The notes beneath the pieces are model-generated. The model saw nothing but the letters and a program-made list of their open reading frames with translations, was not told the DNA's origin and made no database searches. From Candidatus Poribacteria bacterium (GTDB lineage Bacteria; Poribacteria; WGA-4E; PCPOR2b), in assembly GCA_021295755.1 (NCBI GenBank), contig JAGWBT010000001.1, positions 2,349-66,348 of the forward strand: a stretch of DNA of 64,000 nt, written 5' to 3'. Below, piece by piece: positions 4,943 through 59,764 of this stretch. Within the stretch, counting starts at the first letter, position 1. Each line of letters starts with the position of its first letter. Made by a program: the position numbers and the translations under genes.

Positions 4943-6478
4943 TCACGCCACAATTCTCGCTGGTTTGCCCTGTTGAAGGACAATATGCTTTTTCCATTTT
5001 ACATCGTATTGTTTAGGAAAATCCTCTCGATAATGTGCGCCGCGACTCTCAGTGCGCAGAACTGCTGCTTCCGTTATCAATGCCGCAACATCGTGCATAT
5101 TTTGAAACTCAAATTCCTCGATATTGTGCCAATGGGAATTCAGTTTTAGCGCTTTCAATTCATCGAATGTTGCCTCTAAATCTTTACTATCTCTAACAGG
5201 CCCCACCTGCTGCCACATCATCTCTTGCACGAACTCCTGTACCGCTTCAATCGCAGCGTCGGGAGATGCTGTTTGAGAGAGAGTAAAGTCATCAGCAGAG
5301 GAAATACGGAGGTTCGCATAGCTGCCAGATTGGATCGAGCGTGCATATTCCACAGCTTTCCTCCCGGCGCGCGTACCAAACACAATACATTCAAATAAAG
5401 GATTGTGTGCCAGTGGACTTGCCCCGTGAACGCCGGTACAGGCAACCTCACCACACGCATATAGCCCACGGACGGATGTCTCTGCGTTTAGATTCGTGCA
5501 AACACCGCCCATCATGAAATGTGCGGCGGATCTGACAGGAATAACATCGGTGGTAATATCAATTCCAAACTGATGGCAAAACTGATAGATATTGGAAAAG
5601 CGACCTCGTATAAAATCAGATGATAGGTGGGTTATATCTAGATAGACACATGGGCTTCCGGTTAATTCCATCTCATTCCAAATCGCACGAGCTACGACAT
5701 TACACGGCGCCAGTTCCTCCATTTCGTGGTATCTTGCCATGAACCGTTCCCCGCGCGAATTAATTAAAATACCCCCAGCCTCACGTGCCCCTGTACCAAT
5801 CAAACAGTGCGATGCGTCCATCAGGAACAGAGTCGTCGGATGAAATTGGATAAACTCCATGTCCATCATCTCACAGCCCGCCCGCCAAGCTGCCGCGTAA
5901 CCATCGCCTGTTGCAATCGCAGGGTTCGACGTACATTGAAAGATGTTTCCAAGCCCGCCTGAGGCGAGGATGGTAGCTTTGGCAAAAATGCAGTGAAGCG
6001 CGTCGTTAATAAGGCTAACGACCCCATAGCATCTATCCCCTTGCGTCATCAAGTCGACTACAAAGGCTTGTTCGATTACCCGCACATTCTTCTGGCCTTT
6101 GAAGTAATCGGCTAATGTCGTTTCCTCCTCTTTGTCACAATGTGTTCGTGCCTGAATCAATTCTGACACCTGTTGAATACCCTTTTCAACCATCACCTCG
6201 ACAGCAGGCTGATTGCAGAGGCCAAGACCCGCTTTGAGAGTTGCTTCAACATGGGAAGCGGGCGTAATCTCTTCACTCATGATGGCAGAAATTCCACCTT
6301 TAGCATCGGGGTGATTATCTTCTTTTATCGCTTCCTTAGTAATTAGTAGGACATCACCGTGCTGGCTGGCTTCCATCGCTGCGTTTAGCCCGGCGCTCCC
6401 GGTACCAATCACTAAGAAATCGGTGTCAATCCTTGGTAATTCGGCTGAATCAAATTGGACGATATATTGACGGGTCAT
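4943..6478 (-). CDS. nadB: L-aspartate oxidase (FAD-dependent; succinate dehydrogenase/fumarate reductase flavoprotein family)
   Basis: N-terminal FAD fold (VIGTGSAGL). Segments TSNPAIATGDGYAAAWRAGC..EFIQFHPT, ELAPCNVVARAI, SAAHFMMGGV, GLYACGEV..TGVHGA and ESRGAHYREDFP align block by block with E. coli NadB. Confidence 0.8.
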   Translation of the reverse strand: MTRQYIVQFDSAELPRIDTDFLVIGTGSAGLNAAMEASQHGDVLLITKEAIKEDNHPDAKGGISAIMSEEITPASHVEATLKAGLGLCNQPAVEVMVEKGIQQVSELIQARTHCDKEEETTLADYFKGQKNVRVIEQAFVVDLMTQGDRCYGVVSLINDALHCIFAKATILASGGLGNIFQCTSNPAIATGDGYAAAWRAGCEMMDMEFIQFHPTTLFLMDASHCLIGTGAREAGGILINSRGERFMARYHEMEELAPCNVVARAIWNEMELTGSPCVYLDITHLSSDFIRGRFSNIYQFCHQFGIDITTDVIPVRSAAHFMMGGVCTNLNAETSVRGLYACGEVACTGVHGASPLAHNPLFECIVFGTRAGRKAVEYARSIQSGSYANLRISSADDFTLSQTASPDAAIEAVQEFVQEMMWQQVGPVRDSKDLEATFDELKALKLNSHWHNIEEFEFQNMHDVAALITEAAVLRTESRGAHYREDFPKQYDVKWKKHIVLQQGKPARIVA

Positions 6479-43575: not shown

Positions 43576-45702
43576 TTGGAAAATAGAGTCGCATATTTCA
43601 TATTTTGTTTATTAGGTATCATATCTCTGTTTATTCTAATTCCTCCATGTACAGCTGCACCACCCAACCCCTATCTCTTCTACAGTTACAATCCTGCTAC
43701 ACACGATTGGATACCTAGGGCACCCACAAGTGAGGATCAATTCCGCAATGCGTTACAGGGCTGCTGTTTTGTTCGTGAACAAAGCGTGCTGCAAGAAGAT
43801 GGCATCGAGTTTGTGCTGGCGATAAAAATCGACTTCTCAGATCAACCCGGTCAACGCCCGGGTGCAGCGTTCAATCAGTACCTCTTTGCGGACGAAGGCG
43901 TTTCGCTGCATACTTACTACAGAGAAGTTTCTTACGGACAGATGGACATACAGCCAGGGCCGATGGGAGGAGTTGTTCCGAAAGGCAATCAATGGATCCG
44001 CGCACAGAAGGCGATGAGTTATTATGGCGAAGGTCAGATCAACGTCAGACGCTCTCAAGAATTAGTTCGTGAAGCGTGTGCAGCGGTAGATGAAATGGTG
44101 GATTTTTCTGCCTATGACCGTGACGGAGACGGTATAGTTGACCACGTTTTTGTTATCCACTCAGGAGATGATCAAGCCTCCACCACCGAGATGAATGATA
44201 TCTGGTCAATTTTGGTGCAGAATGTGAATAGAGAGTTTGATGGCGTATGGGTAAGCACGGCGGTTCTAGTCGGTGAGGAACCTAGTTTCGATAAGCCCCA
44301 TCTGGGTATTTACTTCCACGAGTTTTTCCACGATTTTGGCGCCCCCGATGTGTATGGTGGTAATTTTACCGGTCCCCGTGACCATAAGTGGGGACTGATG
44401 GGGCAGTTTGGCCCCTATCAGGGCGAAATTATTGATGGGATTGGAAATGGATTACAACCGAGCCATATCAGCGGTTACCTAAAATGGGACTTCGATGCGC
44501 GTCCGGAAAACGGACGCGTCGGTTGGATTCAACCTGTAGAGATCAAGGAGAATGTGACTAACCTGTCCATACCTAGTTTTGAGTTGCCGCCACACGACAA
44601 CAAACTCTTCAAAGTCGATATTCCCGACAAAATTAGCGAATTTGGCGATAGTACAGAATTCTTCCTCATTGAGAACCGGCACCGGAAATCGGGAGCGTTG
44701 TTCGACACCCGTTTGCCCGAATCCGGAATTCTCATCTGGCATATTGATGAAACCGACGTACGTCCTTCCGGAGTGGTTGACGCTGCAAGTCAGATTTGGC
44801 TTGAAGACCCGAACGATCCGAGGCATTTTGGTATCCCTCCCGGCGATCCGGATACCATAGATCTTCGCACGGTTACCGATGGTGCGGCGTATTCCGCTGA
44901 CGACAACGAAACATCTTTTACCCCGGCAACCAGTCCTAACAGCAATGCCAATGACGGAACAATCTCGAAAATTTCTATCACGAATATCGGTTTCGAGGGA
45001 CAGGAAATAGCGATCTCTGTTGCGTTTGGAGATACCTATGAGCCAAATGATGCTTTGACCGAGGCTTTTCCCATTGAATTCGACCAGACCTACGAGTCCT
45101 TTATCGCCGATGAAAATGATGTGAGAGATCTCTATCAATTTAATGCGATACCGGGACAGGCAATCGTAGCTACCCTGATTGTTAATTCTGAGACGGTGGA
45201 TTATCAATTCTCTATACTTGATAAAAGTGGTCGGTACATCGCTACCGCAGAGCGGGCTGAAACAACAGAACTACAGGTTATTTTTCAGCCAGAGCAAACT
45301 GATACATATCTCATTTCAGTTGAATCCCTATCTGGCTTCAGCGAAGTAGATTCATATCTCTTGACCGTCAATGCGGTTGAAACGCGATCTGGGCAGCTAA
45401 AATTGGCAAGAGTTCGCGCCTTTCCGAATCCGATGCGCCTAGAGCACAACGAAATAATCTTCTCCTACACAATCCCTGGCTTCCAACTAGCCGAGGAGGC
45501 AGAACTAGAAATCTTCAATGTCGCTGGCGATCTAGTTCACACACAGGTCCGACAGGCGGTGATTGGATCACATCAATTCCGTTGGAATGGCAAAAATGCG
45601 GATAATGAGACACTCGCCACAGGGATTTATATCTTTGTTATCTCCGCAAGCCAGGGTGATGATATAGTACAGCAAATTGGTACAATTGGTTTAGCGAGGT
45701 AA
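43576..45702 (+). CDS. secreted M6-like (immune inhibitor A family) zinc metalloprotease with C-terminal sorting/Ig-like domain
   Basis: Signal peptide; HEFFHDFGAPD zinc motif (HExxHxxGxxD). C-terminal about 80 aa (FPNPMRLEH...GIYIFVI) resembles Por/T9SS-type or FlgD-Ig-like C-terminal domains. TTG start with RBS AAAGGAAG. Confidence 0.8.
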   Translation: MENRVAYFIFCLLGIISLFILIPPCTAAPPNPYLFYSYNPATHDWIPRAPTSEDQFRNALQGCCFVREQSVLQEDGIEFVLAIKIDFSDQPGQRPGAAFNQYLFADEGVSLHTYYREVSYGQMDIQPGPMGGVVPKGNQWIRAQKAMSYYGEGQINVRRSQELVREACAAVDEMVDFSAYDRDGDGIVDHVFVIHSGDDQASTTEMNDIWSILVQNVNREFDGVWVSTAVLVGEEPSFDKPHLGIYFHEFFHDFGAPDVYGGNFTGPRDHKWGLMGQFGPYQGEIIDGIGNGLQPSHISGYLKWDFDARPENGRVGWIQPVEIKENVTNLSIPSFELPPHDNKLFKVDIPDKISEFGDSTEFFLIENRHRKSGALFDTRLPESGILIWHIDETDVRPSGVVDAASQIWLEDPNDPRHFGIPPGDPDTIDLRTVTDGAAYSADDNETSFTPATSPNSNANDGTISKISITNIGFEGQEIAISVAFGDTYEPNDALTEAFPIEFDQTYESFIADENDVRDLYQFNAIPGQAIVATLIVNSETVDYQFSILDKSGRYIATAERAETTELQVIFQPEQTDTYLISVESLSGFSEVDSYLLTVNAVETRSGQLKLARVRAFPNPMRLEHNEIIFSYTIPGFQLAEEAELEIFNVAGDLVHTQVRQAVIGSHQFRWNGKNADNETLATGIYIFVISASQGDDIVQQIGTIGLAR

Positions 45703-53243: not shown

Positions 53244-53660
53244 TTAGATTTCTTCTTCCGCTTCCAGTATCATGGCAGCAAAGGTGATGATATCTTCTTG
53301 GAAAGCTTCAGTAAAATCTTCCGCGCGCTTCTTTTCTGCAAACCGGTTGAATACCGTTTCTAACGCTTGGATGAATTCTTCTGGGCTGCCCGCCTCCTCT
53401 GCCTGTTGTTTCATCTGCTCTAGGATAGTCATCTTAGCTGCTTCTTCGCGTTCTGCTTGTACTTCCTGTATGGATTTGTCAAACGTAACCCGAAGTGTTT
53501 CGACGATATGATATGCCATAGAACGGCTATACTTCTGGGCATCCCGTTTTGTGCCCTCATAAATATCAAGAGGTAGCAATAGGCTTATCTGCTTCTTTAG
53601 TGAATCTTTAGACTGGCGATATTCTTTCATTGGAATCCTCGCAATTATTGGCATGGGCAA
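53244..53660 (-). CDS. hypothetical acidic helical protein downstream of integrase
   Basis: 138 aa, Glu/Ala-rich predicted helices, no motifs. Co-directional with the recombinase gene. Confidence 0.45.
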   Translation of the reverse strand: MPMPIIARIPMKEYRQSKDSLKKQISLLLPLDIYEGTKRDAQKYSRSMAYHIVETLRVTFDKSIQEVQAEREEAAKMTILEQMKQQAEEAGSPEEFIQALETVFNRFAEKKRAEDFTEAFQEDIITFAAMILEAEEEI

Positions 53661-53769
53661 GCTGCGTTAAAAATAATATCTACATCACTAAATATAGTAT
53701 ACCAATGAAATGCACGAATGTAAAGTGAAATTATCCGCAGAAAAAGAACATGCAGTATTATGTAAAATA

Positions 53770-54678
53770 CTAATCCTGAGAAATGCTTTCCATGGTAATA
53801 TGCAAATCACGTTCTGTAGGAATAGTATAAACTGAAGTAGTATTAATGTTGGAATGCCCTAATATCTTTGCGACTCTATCAATCGACTGCCCAGCATCAA
53901 TAAGATTTTTGGCACAGGTGTGCCTAAATACGTGCGGAGACAGATTGTCTATTTTTGCTTTATACGCATATTTCTGTATCACATATCGAACGCCACGATC
54001 TGTCAGCGGCATCCGCTTCTGCCCGTAAAACAGAAAACGCTCCCTTTCAGGATTAGATCCGGCTATATAGATGACCTCTTCATTGTTATCAAATGATTTT
54101 ATAAAATCCTTCAGAACACCTATGGCAGTTGAGTTTAAGGGCACATTGCGGCGTTTCGTTCCTTTACCCTCACGCACTGTAATCATATTACTATTCGTTG
54201 ATATTCTAATATCAGAAACTCTCAGATTGCAAAGTTCTCCAACGCGTATGCCGGTATGCAGCAGCATTGTAATAATCGCTAAATCCCTCAAATTGCCTGA
54301 TCTGCGTACCGCCCGCAATAACGCTAGCTGCTCTTTACGTTCCAAAGCTCGTGGGGCAAGCGGTTCTTCCGCGACACTTCGTATGCCTTCAGCGGGGTTA
54401 CTGGCAATGAGGTCGTTTTGCTGTGCCCACTGGCAGAAGCTTGAAATACTTATCAAACTGCGATTAATGGTCGATGGCTTCTTATCCCAGTCCAGCATTG
54501 CATTTCTATAGTCGATAATCTCCATCGGCGTAATGTTTTCAAGATTCAGTGGTTCTCCTGTGGTTTGTTGGAACCAACGTGAGAATGAGCTAAGATCTGT
54601 CATGTACGCCTTGATAGTCTGCTCGGACTTATCTTGGTCATATAGATAATCGCGGTAATCCTGTAACAAATCGTCCAT
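53770..54678 (-). CDS. tyrosine-type site-specific recombinase/integrase (XerC/XerD-like)
   Basis: N-terminal SAM-like core-binding domain. C-terminal catalytic residues R...HxxR...Y (…HVFRHTCAKNL…LGHSNINTTSVYT). Confidence 0.85.
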   Translation of the reverse strand: MDDLLQDYRDYLYDQDKSEQTIKAYMTDLSSFSRWFQQTTGEPLNLENITPMEIIDYRNAMLDWDKKPSTINRSLISISSFCQWAQQNDLIASNPAEGIRSVAEEPLAPRALERKEQLALLRAVRRSGNLRDLAIITMLLHTGIRVGELCNLRVSDIRISTNSNMITVREGKGTKRRNVPLNSTAIGVLKDFIKSFDNNEEVIYIAGSNPERERFLFYGQKRMPLTDRGVRYVIQKYAYKAKIDNLSPHVFRHTCAKNLIDAGQSIDRVAKILGHSNINTTSVYTIPTERDLHITMESISQD

Positions 54679-54690
54679 ATTTCACCTCTC

Positions 54691-54820
54691 CTTATCGGAC
54701 ATATTTTTTAAGAATTCAGTGTTTATGCGGGTTAGAACGCCGTAGTTTTGTGATTCGTTTCACTTATCGGATATTTTGCGGGGATATAATGTCCGATAAG
54801 ATTAGTTATCGGACATTTTA
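54691..54820. repeat. cluster of four copies of a about-15-bp motif TTATCGGA(C)AT(A)TTTT (three direct, one inverted) immediately upstream of the recombinase start
   Basis: Direct copies at 54691-54707, 54763-54777 and 54806-54820; inverted copy at 54788-54800. The last two form a 13-bp inverted repeat with a 5-bp spacer. A TATAAT hexamer lies at 54786-54791. Confidence 0.7.
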
Positions 54821-54849
54821 CGGAAGAAGGTGGTAGTAGCTGACGCCAA

Positions 54850-54876
54850 AATGGCTAAAATCGCTGATTTTAGCCA
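54850..54876. repeat. perfect 12-bp inverted repeat ATGGCTAAAATC-gct-GATTTTAGCCAT followed by TTTT
   Basis: Read directly from the sequence. AT-rich stem with a 3-nt loop, so more likely a protein-binding palindrome than a strong terminator. Confidence 0.6.
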
Positions 54877-55097
54877 TTTTAACCCAAATTCCATTCTGCA
54901 TCAACACTTTTCTCGTCACTCATTCGCAGGTTCATTCGTTTATGTGTTTGGACTTGACATCAAATTCGATGAATGCTATCATCCAAATATTCAGTACCTC
55001 GATGAAAAGCTAGAACCAACACCGGCTTCGGCAAGTGACTACTAGTGATAATGGTGGTTATGTTCACTCCTAAACTTACGAATTATGTTTTATCAAT

Positions 55098-56779: not shown

Positions 56780-58057
56780 TTGGCTTCACAACAAACTATC
56801 CAAAATGAGGTAACTATCTCAGGAACCGGTCTAATGCTTGGTGAACTAGTCAACCTCGCATTTAAGCCGGCGTCCGTGGACCATGGAATTGTGTTTCACC
56901 GGACTGATCTGCCCGATGAACCGATAGTCCAAGTTTGCCCCGATAACTACGAGGCAATCATTCCTCGCTGTACAAGCCTGCGCGCCGGGGCGGCGGCGGT
57001 CAACAGTGTTGAACATCTGCTGTCCGCATTGGCCGGCATGGGTGTTGATAACCTGCGAGTCGATATCGATGCCCCTGAGTGCCCAGCACTAGATGGCAGT
57101 GCATTACCGTATGTCGAGATCCTACAGCAGGCAGAGATAGTTGCACAGGATGCCCCACGCTCTCCCATCGAATTGAAAGACCCATTCGCTGCTTATGACG
57201 AGGACAAGCAACTCATCCTACTCCCCGCGGATTCCTTTCAAATCTCCTTTGTGTATGATCACCCAAAACTTCCTACGCAAGTAGCGACCCTTGCGATAGA
57301 TCCAGAAACTTACGTCAGTGAAATCGCTCCCGCACGCAGTTTCTGCTTTGCTGACGAAATCGAGTTACTCAGGAGCCAAGGAATCGGTAAGGGGGCAAGT
57401 TATGATAATGTCCTTGTTATTGAAGATGATGGAAGCACTAGTAGTGAGCTGAGGTTCCCCAATGAAGTTGTCCGACATAAAATGCTAGACTTAATAGGGG
57501 ACCTTTACTTAGTCGGAAAGCTGCCCCAAGCCCAAGCTGTTGCACTGAAGTCAGGGCATACGCTTCATGCACAACTCATCCTAGCGATGGCAGAGGAAGG
57601 ACTGATACAACAGCAACAGCCTATTGAAATTATGGATATTCTAGAAGTATTGCCCCACCGCTATCCGATGTGTATGTTGGATCGAATTATCCAAGCGGAA
57701 CCCGGCAAACGCGCAGTGGGCATCAAAAATCTTAGTTTTAATGAGCCTTTTTTTCAGGGGCATTTTCCCGAGCAACCCGTCATGCCCGGCGTGTTACAAA
57801 TGGAAGCATTGGCGCAGCTCGGGGCATGGTTGCTGTTAAAAGAACTGGGGGCTGAAGGACAAGTCGGATATTTTGTGTCAATCAAGGAAGCCAAATTTAG
57901 ACGACCGGTTGTACCGGGCGATCAACTTCGACTAGAAATCGAAATACTTCGAAGACGTCGTACATGGGCGAGGCTTGGCGGCAAGGCGTATGTCGGCGAT
58001 CAACTTGCAGCGGAGGGAGAGCTGTCAATCGCGCTGGGACAGGAGTCAGCGGGATAG
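56780..58057 (+). CDS. lpxC-fabZ: bifunctional UDP-3-O-acyl-GlcNAc deacetylase / 3-hydroxyacyl-ACP dehydratase (LpxC-FabZ fusion)
   Basis: N-terminal LpxC (TISGTGLMLGELVNLAFKPA … HKMLDLIGDL) fused to a C-terminal FabZ hotdog domain (…LPHRYPMCMLDRI…GHFP..PVMPGVLQMEA). TTG start. Confidence 0.9.
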   Translation: MASQQTIQNEVTISGTGLMLGELVNLAFKPASVDHGIVFHRTDLPDEPIVQVCPDNYEAIIPRCTSLRAGAAAVNSVEHLLSALAGMGVDNLRVDIDAPECPALDGSALPYVEILQQAEIVAQDAPRSPIELKDPFAAYDEDKQLILLPADSFQISFVYDHPKLPTQVATLAIDPETYVSEIAPARSFCFADEIELLRSQGIGKGASYDNVLVIEDDGSTSSELRFPNEVVRHKMLDLIGDLYLVGKLPQAQAVALKSGHTLHAQLILAMAEEGLIQQQQPIEIMDILEVLPHRYPMCMLDRIIQAEPGKRAVGIKNLSFNEPFFQGHFPEQPVMPGVLQMEALAQLGAWLLLKELGAEGQVGYFVSIKEAKFRRPVVPGDQLRLEIEILRRRRTWARLGGKAYVGDQLAAEGELSIALGQESAG

Positions 58058-58960: not shown

Positions 58961-59764
58961 TTGGAAAAACTGGGGCTCATTGCTGGAGCCGGCGATTTAC
59001 CCCTTCTGCTCGCACAAGCAGCATTAAAACAGGAGCGGATACCGTTTGTTATCCAGATCACTCAACCCGCCTCCAAACAACTTGAGAGCATTGCCTCAGA
59101 GACATTTTCATTTAGCATTGGGCAGGTTCAGAAGATAACAAAAACGCTGCTCGACGCAGGTGTCCGAGAATTGGCAATTATCGGCAAAATTGACACAGGA
59201 ATCCTGTTCCGTCCGTTTCTAGTAGACCCAACGGCTGTCAAGATTCTGGCGAGGAATCGCAACAAAGGAACTCGTGCAATCGTTGCTGCGGTGATTGAAC
59301 ACTTTGAATCGAAAGGAATTAGTGTAGTTGAGCAGCATCGATTTTTACGGGGGTTGATGCCATCGGCAGGTGTATTGACGAAAAGGCAACCAACCCAATC
59401 CCAGTGGGCGGATGTGAAGTACGGGATGCAGCTTGCACGGCAAATGGCAGATTTGGGGATTGGACAGACCGTCGTTGTAAAGAATATGACGGCAGTTGCA
59501 ATTGAAGCGATCGAGGGGACCGATAAAACAATAAAACGGGGTGGGATGCTCGGTGGTAAAGGCGTTATTGTTGCCAAAGCGGCAGCGACTGACCACGATT
59601 TTCGTGTCGATGTGCCAACAGTCGGGGATCAAACTCTGAAAACCCTGCAAGCCGTTGGCGGAAATGTACTCGCTGTTGAAGCAGAACGCACGTTTGTTAT
59701 GAATCAACAGCCGCTTTGCGAACAGGCGGATCAGTGGAAAATTCCCATTGTTGCCTTGGCTTAA
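58961..59764 (+). CDS. lpxI: UDP-2,3-diacylglucosamine pyrophosphatase LpxI-like (DUF1009)
   Basis: LGLIAGAGDLP N-terminus as in Caulobacter LpxI; 267 aa; position downstream of lpxA. Confidence 0.6.
   Translation: MEKLGLIAGAGDLPLLLAQAALKQERIPFVIQITQPASKQLESIASETFSFSIGQVQKITKTLLDAGVRELAIIGKIDTGILFRPFLVDPTAVKILARNRNKGTRAIVAAVIEHFESKGISVVEQHRFLRGLMPSAGVLTKRQPTQSQWADVKYGMQLARQMADLGIGQTVVVKNMTAVAIEAIEGTDKTIKRGGMLGGKGVIVAKAAATDHDFRVDVPTVGDQTLKTLQAVGGNVLAVEAERTFVMNQQPLCEQADQWKIPIVALA

Follow-up and report, generated by a model that had tools for sequence, protein, structure and literature searches.

Directly upstream of a gene for a tyrosine recombinase, a stretch of 64,000 nucleotides from the Candidatus Poribacteria bacterium contig JAGWBT010000001.1 (the window, whose first letter is position 1) carries an array of four short repeats, which very probably represents the cognate four-arm recombination site of this TnpI-type recombinase. 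With the same high confidence, we regard the module, comprising the site, the recombinase and a small acidic protein termed small128, as chromosomal, single-copy and vertically inherited, and not as the boundary of a genomic island. TnpI-type recombinases, sites resembling TnpI's internal resolution site (IRS) and arms of the dif type are known as such; new is that they combine, with no transposase and throughout the phylum, into a chromosomal module alongside a dedicated partner of putative ribbon-helix-helix (RHH) type.

The four-arm site and its recombinase

The site and its gene are organized in the window as listed below. Conservation is given for 38 Poribacteria loci, many of them from complete chromosomes, obtained by scanning one genome per species with patterns specific to this ortholog; L-numbers are locus labels.

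53770..54678, minus strand: tyrosine recombinase of 302 aa, TnpI-like (Xer-like superfamily), from the open reading frame (ORF) and Pfam
54806..54816, minus strand: arm A1 (IR1-like), the outer core arm, ATGTCCGATAA on the gene strand, from motif scan and inverted-repeat search; in 37 of 38 species
54800..54805, minus strand: core centre of 6 bp (gene strand CTAATC), presumably the region of crossover in view of its fixed length and the junctions in L026
54789..54799, minus strand: arm A2 (IR2-like), the inner core arm, inverted relative to A1, TTATCGGACAT on the gene strand
54764..54774, minus strand: accessory arm A3 (DR1-like), ATATCCGATAA, preceding a conserved GTGAAAC
54692..54702, minus strand: arm A4 (DR2-like accessory arm), ATGTCCGATAA, abutting the Shine-Dalgarno sequence (SD) GGAGAGG, with the ATG 24 nt further on

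On the plus strand, the motif reads TTATCGGACAT at 54692 and 54806, the reverse complement thereof at 54789-54799 and TTATCGGATAT at 54764. These copies make up four of the five matches in the window at no more than one mismatch, with 1.3 matches expected across 64 kb, and the array (54692-54816) spans 125 bp upstream of the recombinase. Read along the gene strand, the order is A1(+)-6 bp-A2(-)-14 bp-A3(+)-A4(+)-SD-ATG, with 72 bp between the starts of A3 and A4. A preceding sequence-only reading had described four motif copies just upstream of the recombinase, three direct and one inverted, of which two form a 13-bp inverted repeat. All four were found within the 125 bp, and the inverted repeat is real and comprises 15 nt (54785-54799 and 54806-54820, 93% complementary, 6-nt gap). 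The same reading took the repeats for arm-type or operator sites. Their nature as binding sites of the recombinase is indeed suggested by the order and orientation of the TnpI motifs, their near-identical sequence and the conservation in 37 of 38 species; as a whole, they would form a complete recombination site, not the arm-type sites of an integrase.

The closest counterpart of this arrangement is the site of TnpI. In Tn4430, the IRS comprises 116 bp with four TnpI-binding motifs, of which IR1 and IR2 constitute the core for strand exchange, while DR1 and DR2 act as accessory arms that bind additional TnpI and confer resolution selectivity via a topologically defined synapse (PMC2847244, PMC7157771). 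For Tn5401, binding of TnpI to its site was reported to modulate tnpI and tnpA expression, and altogether TnpI/IRS systems have been recognized in only a handful of Tn3-family transposons, with three covered in a review (PMC7157771). We read the Tn5401 motif directly from a plasmid copy (L051), where the DNA upstream of the Tn5401-type tnpI consists of ATGTCCACTAAT-taat-ATTAGTGGACAT, 24 bp, ATGTCCGCTAAC, 23 bp, ATGTCCGCTAAT, the ribosome binding site (RBS) and the ATG, and where one extra motif copy is located at each transposon end. As in the TnpI/IRS systems of Tn4430, Tn5401 and TnBth4, the Poribacteria site lies directly upstream of the recombinase gene and combines inverted core arms around a 6-bp centre with two direct accessory arms. 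Order and orientation of A1-A2-A3-A4-SD-ATG equal those of IR1-IR2-DR1-DR2-tnpI in Tn5401, and the 11-bp arm ATGTCCGATAA differs from ATGTCCRCTAA at a single position. The spacing differs from that of the Tn5401-type element, with an A2-A3 gap of 14 bp instead of 24 bp and an A3-A4 distance of 72 bp instead of 35 bp, and the arrays of the Tn5401-like element (99 bp) and of Tn4430 (116 bp) have spans similar to the 125 bp found here. The same four-arm layout, each time with its own arm sequences, is found at the tnpI genes of Legionella, Rickettsia and Paenibacillus and at a Moorellaceae homolog; it thus characterizes this family of recombinases.

Unlike these transposons, the Poribacteria module features neither tnpA nor terminal inverted repeats nor arm copies at element ends, but is chromosomal, single-copy, phylum-wide and vertically inherited, and is followed by a Poribacteria-specific RHH-like gene. 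No transposase adjoining the module and no arm copy outside the site was found in the 38 species, and neither a Tn3 transposase nor an extra site was present in the approximately 0.55 Mb of Poribacteria DNA examined.

The recombinase matches Pfam Phage_integrase (9.7e-38) together with an N-terminal SAM-like Phage_int_SAM_1 domain, and its catalytic residues R145, K172, H249, R252, H275 and Y284 are invariant across 11 orthologs. It scores about equally with the XerC, XerD and archaeal XerA models and far under their trusted cut-offs, with 190.1 bits for NCBIfam XerC (cut-off 335) and 186.7 bits for XerD (cut-off 330), both far below the equivalog thresholds; the nearest solved structures in the PDB comparison were XerA and XerD. 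In BLASTP, TnpI-type proteins reached 170-207 bits and the Moorellaceae homolog 229 bits, compared to 97 bits for E. coli XerD (28% pairwise identity) and 74 bits for XerC (24%), a difference of about twofold. The Tn5401-type TnpI is 33% identical over the full length (E 1e-55) and the TnpI proteins of Legionella, Rickettsia and Paenibacillus are 34-36% identical, and the scores between the window recombinase and TnpI exceed those between two TnpI subgroups (129-149 bits). Compared with annotated plasmids, the recombinase was matched best by unnamed ‘tyrosine-type recombinases’ (33-38% identity over the full length), and three of the five contexts inspected were tnpI of Tn3-family transposons. 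In the Tn5401 arrangement displayed by a Bacillus thuringiensis plasmid, a ParE toxin pair stands before tnpI and a Tn3-family transposase after it; in Legionella fallonii, tnpI is likewise followed by a Tn3-family transposase, and in Rickettsia by a fragment with DUF4158, the N-terminal part of Tn3 transposases. The plasmid homologs of Paenibacillus larvae and Ammonifex degensii adjoin toxin-antitoxin genes, without an intact Tn3 transposase.

Conservation, inheritance and natural variants in Poribacteria

Each of the 38 genomes contains exactly one locus, with a recombinase 56-93% identical to that of the window. All four arms occur in the same order at 37 of these loci and are essentially invariant. 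The core centre always comprises 6 bp, yet shows 12 different sequences among the 37 species, and the gap between A2 and A3 is exactly 14 bp in all 37. Seven species feature an additional 90-110 bp between A3 and A4; the distance from A4 to the ATG stays at 22-28 nt in all species, even with A3 and A4 160-185 bp apart. In every untruncated locus, the recombinase gene is followed by small128.

In the 19 species with a recombinase identity of at least 83%, both flanks of the module are syntenic with those in the window, where ruvX, mltG/YceG, lpxC-fabZ, lpxA and lpxI are located on one side and genes for a Gfo/Idh/MocA oxidoreductase, an SSF symporter, a beta-lactamase family protein, a cupin and a xylose-isomerase-like TIM barrel on the other. 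Within this group, the identity of the recombinase (83-93%) is as high as the mean of six neighbour genes (83-93%), and both values are correlated (Spearman 0.73, p = 4e-4). In the distant clades, other ordinary genes of the chromosome surround the three-part module. Its G+C content of 0.42-0.44, compared to about 0.49 in the flanks, is lower than the surroundings in nearly all species (difference -0.087 to +0.027) and is therefore a standing property and not a sign of recent import. No tRNA gene and no second copy of the site were found within the window, and no Rfam match at the locus.

The sequence-only reading had named this gene neighbourhood correctly, including its division into ruvX, mltG and lpx genes on one side and the isomerase, cupin, beta-lactamase, SSF and Gfo/Idh/MocA genes on the other. 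It had, however, taken the recombinase as a possible end of an integrated element and the latter block as accessory, which is at odds with the synteny, the matching divergence and the identical gene order from the TIM barrel to Gfo/Idh/MocA in all 19 species. Furthermore, a comparison of 47.4-47.7 kb with 54.68-54.96 kb, which cover the suggested attL and attR, revealed no common stretch of at least 9 nt on either strand. The proposal of an integrative element thus fails, because relatives show the same context and flanking repeats are absent.

Insertions into intergenic DNA beside the module, on one side or the other, were observed in some species. These include transposases of the insertion sequence (IS) IS4/IS5 type in L014 (4512-5657) and L020 (4568-5713), IS605 TnpB in L018 (7753-8898) and L021 (7671-8927), and a CpsB/CapC gene in L024 (4912-5691). 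Together with a 0.95-kb insert exactly at the core in L026, they leave the earlier idea of a recombination hot spot standing in a weak form, but not as an element boundary. Moreover, a GC-rich palindromic element, GGTCGCGATTCGGAGATCGCTCCTACAG, is located 100-300 bp upstream of A1 in L031, L033, L035 and L040, with the variant GGGATTTGGAAATCCC in L012 at about 5700, and looks like a Poribacteria repeat of the repetitive extragenic palindrome (REP) or miniature inverted-repeat transposable element (MITE) type. In the clade L029-L041, the core palindrome extends to arms of about 20 nt (AGCCCTAAAATGTCCGATAA ... TTATCGGACATTTTAGGGCT) followed by T6, which also looks like an intrinsic terminator for upstream transcription. 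Motif-like matches approximately 2 kb downstream in the same clade were rejected as coincidences within coding sequence.

Natural REARRANGEMENTS at the site was encountered in two cases, an insertion in L026 and a deletion in L024. In L026 (OZ244042.1, 4888-5890), two complete cores bracket an insert of 945 bp. Its genes, for a membrane-anchored protein of 219 aa and a peptide of 53 aa, lie on the other strand than the recombinase gene and point away from it. The order is the normal left flank with A1, the centre TTTACG, a foreign right arm, the insert, a left arm that is again foreign, the centre CTATCA and finally the normal A2-A3-A4, with the hybrid junctions falling at the A1/centre boundary. 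Exactly such hybrid sites would result if a core-bearing circle had crossed over with the chromosomal core at this boundary, and this single case thus provides evidence, at the sequence level, for the core as crossover point in vivo. A recurrent mobile cassette was considered for the insert and rejected, since homologs of the gene for the 219-aa protein occur in ordinary contexts without cores. L024 (OY282444.1, about 5960-6000) features a precise A1-A4 deletion, which spared a single arm together with the upstream promoter and left the recombinase gene intact, and which could have arisen either by slippage between 14-nt direct repeats or by a recombinase-mediated event.

Expression signals, small128 and neighbouring genes

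Further features of the locus comprise the following predicted signals and the small128 gene.

54876..54904, minus strand: predicted recombinase promoter TTGATG-N17-TAAAAT (consensus match), upstream of all four arms
54848..54880, no strand: perfect 15-nt palindrome over the -10/+1 region of the predicted recombinase promoter (inverted-repeat search)
53244..53630, minus strand: small128, acidic protein of 128 aa with an N-terminal RHH/Arc-like segment and a helical C-terminal part
53696..53724, minus strand: predicted promoter of small128 itself, TTTACA-N17-TG-TATACT (10/12 match, with TG)
54954-54982: strong predicted promoter of ruvX itself, TTGACA-N17-TATCAT (promoter prediction)

All 19 syntenic species share the hexamers of the predicted recombinase promoter, which L024 retains as well. 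As this predicted promoter is located upstream of A1, all four arms would lie in the transcribed leader, and recombinase bound at the arms could block its own transcription, which is consistent with the report on Tn5401 (PMC7157771). The perfect 12-bp palindrome noticed previously 30 bp beyond the array is real and even longer, with arms of 15 nt (54848-54862 and 54866-54880, 100% complementary, 3-nt loop). It is perfect only in the window species, while relatives feature the imperfect form TAAAATCA-TAAAATCA-gcc-ATTTTA, and it may serve as an operator or as a 5' stem-loop. In the same region of the window (54848-54885) and of L010-L017, TAAAATCA-like heptads were observed, two direct and one inverted in the relatives, a pattern that resembles the operators of RHH repressors and represents a possible binding site of small128.

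For small128, the extended -10 element TGnTATAMT is conserved across clades. Its start is most likely the ATG at 53630 (128 aa), which matches independent gene calls, rather than the TTG at 53660, and hardly any variation occurs in the first 66 residues. One search revealed 166 proteins of this kind, with Candidatus Poribacteria as the only taxon name given, and a separate, exhaustive search with a HMMER profile revealed 8 representatives in 1.8 billion; small128 consequently appears to be restricted to Poribacteria-type sequences. As to its identity, this HMMER search and searches in Pfam, NCBIfam, PADLOC and PDB profiles gave nothing significant, and the AlphaFold model (pLDDT 76), which is confident only in the helical C-terminal two thirds, had no Foldseek match in the PDB. 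At relaxed thresholds, weak but recurrent matches were obtained for residues 15-60, i.e., to Pfam RHH_5 (E 0.047), to phrog_795 in 19 of 20 members (best 1.7e-4) and to Arc-like phrogs. We read small128 as a DNA-binding protein of the RHH type whose helical domain is specific to the lineage, and which could be a regulator or accessory factor of the module.

Apart from the module, the window contains further features of interest. A single ORF at 56780-58057 joins LpxC (residues 4-270) to a FabA/FabZ-like dehydratase domain (291-413), and the genes lpxA and lpxI following this fusion point to lipid A synthesis by the LpxI and not the LpxH route. The C-terminal part of an M6-family peptidase (43576-45702) consists of a FlgD-Ig/CHU_C/Por_Secre_tail region, i.e., a sorting signal of the type IX secretion kind. 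Within lpxI (59159-59190), 4.4 kb from the true core, an imperfect core-like palindrome, GTGTCCGAGAA-TTGGCAA-TTATCGGCAAAAT, is conserved in L010, L011 and L014; its chance expectation is roughly 0.003 per window, but it is part of coding sequence.

Possible functions of the module

The core of the site bears a clear likeness to dif. In the dif table of Carnoy and Roten, the site of Anaeromyxobacter reads ACGTCCGATAA-TATGGA-TTATGGTAACT and that of Myxococcus AGGTCCGATAA-CATGCG-TTATGTAAACT (PMC2731167). The Poribacteria arm (ACGTCCGATAA / ATGTCCGATAA) equals the XerC-side dif arm of both delta-proteobacterial genera, and the dif sites of Desulfovibrio and Geobacter carry it with one change (PMC2731167); a centre of 6 bp, a non-coding position and a low G+C content are further common traits. 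In contrast to XerCD/dif, however, both core arms are of the XerC type without a XerD arm (TTATGTnAAnT), and a single recombinase and two extra arms are present. Single recombinases are also found in the XerS/difSL system of streptococci and lactococci and the XerH/difH system of epsilon-proteobacteria, which have been described as ‘genetically linked’ to their dif sites in individual modules (PMC2731167) and which likewise pair a Xer-type enzyme with a palindromic site around a 6-bp centre. Nevertheless, their similarity to the window recombinase is low (XerS model 100 bits with a cut-off of 267; XerH PDB match E 1e-6), difSL and difH lack accessory arms, and location at the terminus as well as dimer resolution are established for those systems.

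The core palindrome was also considered as a Poribacteria-specific marker, which was rejected because it is widespread in metagenomes. In fact, GTCCGATAA-N6-TTATCGGAC was found in more than 120 contigs with G+C contents of 0.27-0.69 and without a common neighbour gene, and two viral contigs that cannot be assigned to Poribacteria carry it as well (L053, 6127-6152; L054, 1620-1645). Most of the metagenome (L055-L134) and viral palindromes have no recombinase nearby; nonetheless, tyrosine recombinases are enriched around the metagenome copies (16 of 82 within 3 kb), mostly of the IntA-like type. IntA of Rhizobium etli plasmids acts at attA-attD sites whose core palindrome, TCCGATAA-N7-TTATCGGA, located upstream of its gene at a distance of about 110 bp, is nearly that of the Poribacteria module. 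It is, however, a 380-aa Cre-like protein of a different family acting at a 7-bp centre, with no accessory direct arms seen, and a tblastn search with the window recombinase did not find it. The flanks of the metagenome palindromes are self-complementary above chance (45-55% at +3 to +6) without being conserved, and eight of these loci feature a third arm about 92-117 bp away. Candidate roles for these palindromes are dif-like sites, plasmid or phage sites borrowing Xer-type enzymes of the host, or att sites of the IntA type. This wide distribution marks the arm as a recognition element in broad use among Xer-type recombinases; specific to the Poribacteria module is the pairing of the four-arm arrangement with a TnpI-type enzyme.

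The same architecture without a transposase, in single copy and conserved throughout the phylum, suggests a takeover by the host, in the course of which the Poribacteria unit seems to have lost any transposase and to have been joined to a lineage-specific RHH-like protein. As best explanation, held with moderate confidence, we propose a domesticated, self-regulating resolution module that would act as a dif-like chromosome-dimer resolver. For the chromosome-dimer role taken by itself, our confidence falls slightly short of an even balance. This role would be in line with the dif-like core, the known modules of linked recombinase and dif, the architecture and the conservation; moreover, with one site per chromosome and a resolution-selective system, an intramolecular partner would be available only in a chromosome dimer. 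In the proposed mechanism, four recombinase subunits would load on one site, two of them at A1 and A2, which together with the 6-bp centre would form the strand-exchange core, while A3 and A4 would bind the extra, regulatory subunits. Two sites in direct repeat, as present in a dimer arising from an odd number of sister exchanges, could then synapse via the accessory arms, and strand exchange by the core-bound subunits would restore the monomers. On a monomeric chromosome, the same occupancy within the transcribed leader, with the promoter upstream of A1 and A4 on the RBS, would keep recombinase expression low.

Several observations weigh against this proposal. From one Poribacteria clade to another, the module has different flanks, and therefore either the module has moved or its surroundings have been rearranged. 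Within the window, neither GC skew nor GC3 skew switches at the site, with values dominated by the gene strand; across the 38 loci, the skew likewise follows the gene strand without a consistent switch, and the gene orientation around the module is convergent, divergent or, as in the window clade, co-directional, depending on the clade. Positions of the module in complete chromosomes are uninformative with regard to the terminus, as the assemblies are not rotated to the origin. Furthermore, L024 keeps an intact gene without a core, which is therefore dispensable at least transiently.

An alternative, which we consider rather improbable, is an orphan remnant of a Tn3-family transposon (Tn4430/Tn5401-like) that resolves cointegrates or multimers of other site-bearing plasmids or transposons in trans, and not the chromosome. 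All close characterised relatives reside in Tn3-family transposons or on plasmids, the core palindromes lacking a nearby recombinase in metagenomes and the two viral contigs make elements that borrow the host recombinase conceivable, and the loss of the chromosomal core is tolerated in L024. The constraint on the four-arm site in 37 of 38 species, including its exact spacing, would however be unnecessary if the protein alone were needed, and the Poribacteria DNA examined offers neither a Tn3 transposase nor an extra site as a partner.

Considerably less probable is an integration platform, whose core would capture circular DNA with a similar palindrome, as integrative mobile elements exploiting Xer (IMEX) do at dif, or in the manner of an attI site. 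The integron attI site comprises four boxes (L, R, DR1 and DR2), with an inverted pair and two gene-proximal direct repeats, and formally resembles the Poribacteria layout; moreover, the gene-bearing 945-bp segment between two full cores in L026, with its hybrid arm/centre junctions, is a natural insertion at the core. On the other hand, this is one case in 38 species, the homologs of its insert gene reside in ordinary contexts without cores, and neither a cassette array nor attC is present. The recombinase also lacks the integron-integrase signature (TIGR02249 85.6 bits with a cut-off of 265), and the core-distal DNA, where L026 is left aside, is conserved and contains the promoter of the housekeeping gene ruvX.

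We give still less credence to a pure operator array, bound by the recombinase or the RHH-type protein and repressing the recombinase operon, or to an invertible promoter switch. The position of the arms between predicted promoter and start codon, with A4 abutting the SD, and the RHH-type DNA-binding protein encoded next door would fit an operator; yet a recombinase targeting only its own operator would have no selectable function, its catalytic residues are invariant, A1 and A2, with 11 bp per arm around a 6-bp centre, have the geometry of a crossover core, small128 has its own predicted promoter, and an inverted segment was found in no species. Finally, an integrase with arm-type or att sites at the end of an island from 47.5 to 54.9 kb, as might be suspected from a tyrosine recombinase adjoining repeats, the low G+C content of the module and the insertions beside it, is hardly credible in view of the synteny of block and flanks in 19 species, a recombinase as diverged as its neighbours, the absence of a second att copy and of a tRNA gene, a low G+C content common to the module in all 37 species and hence no mark of recent import, and resolvases, not phage integrases, as nearest relatives.

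For annotation, Poribacteria genes of this kind should neither be named ‘XerC’ or ‘phage integrase’ nor be used to mark genomic islands. The recombinase/site pair, compact and self-contained within a site of about 125 bp and available in natural sequence variants, is also of use for engineering. TnpI/IRS is the textbook example of a tyrosine recombinase controlling its own directionality via accessory arms, and if the Poribacteria module is a dimer-resolution system, it becomes testable whether accessory-arm selectivity replaces control by FtsK on a chromosome of 5-7 Mb. That this sponge-associated phylum resolves chromosome dimers by a domesticated transposon resolvase module instead of XerCD/dif is a tentative and rather doubtful suggestion. 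If true, directionality would result from a self-assembled topological filter and not from activation by FtsK, and Poribacteria would provide a further independent solution to the dimer problem beside XerCD, XerS, XerH and XerA, with a host function recruited from a Tn3-family transposon.

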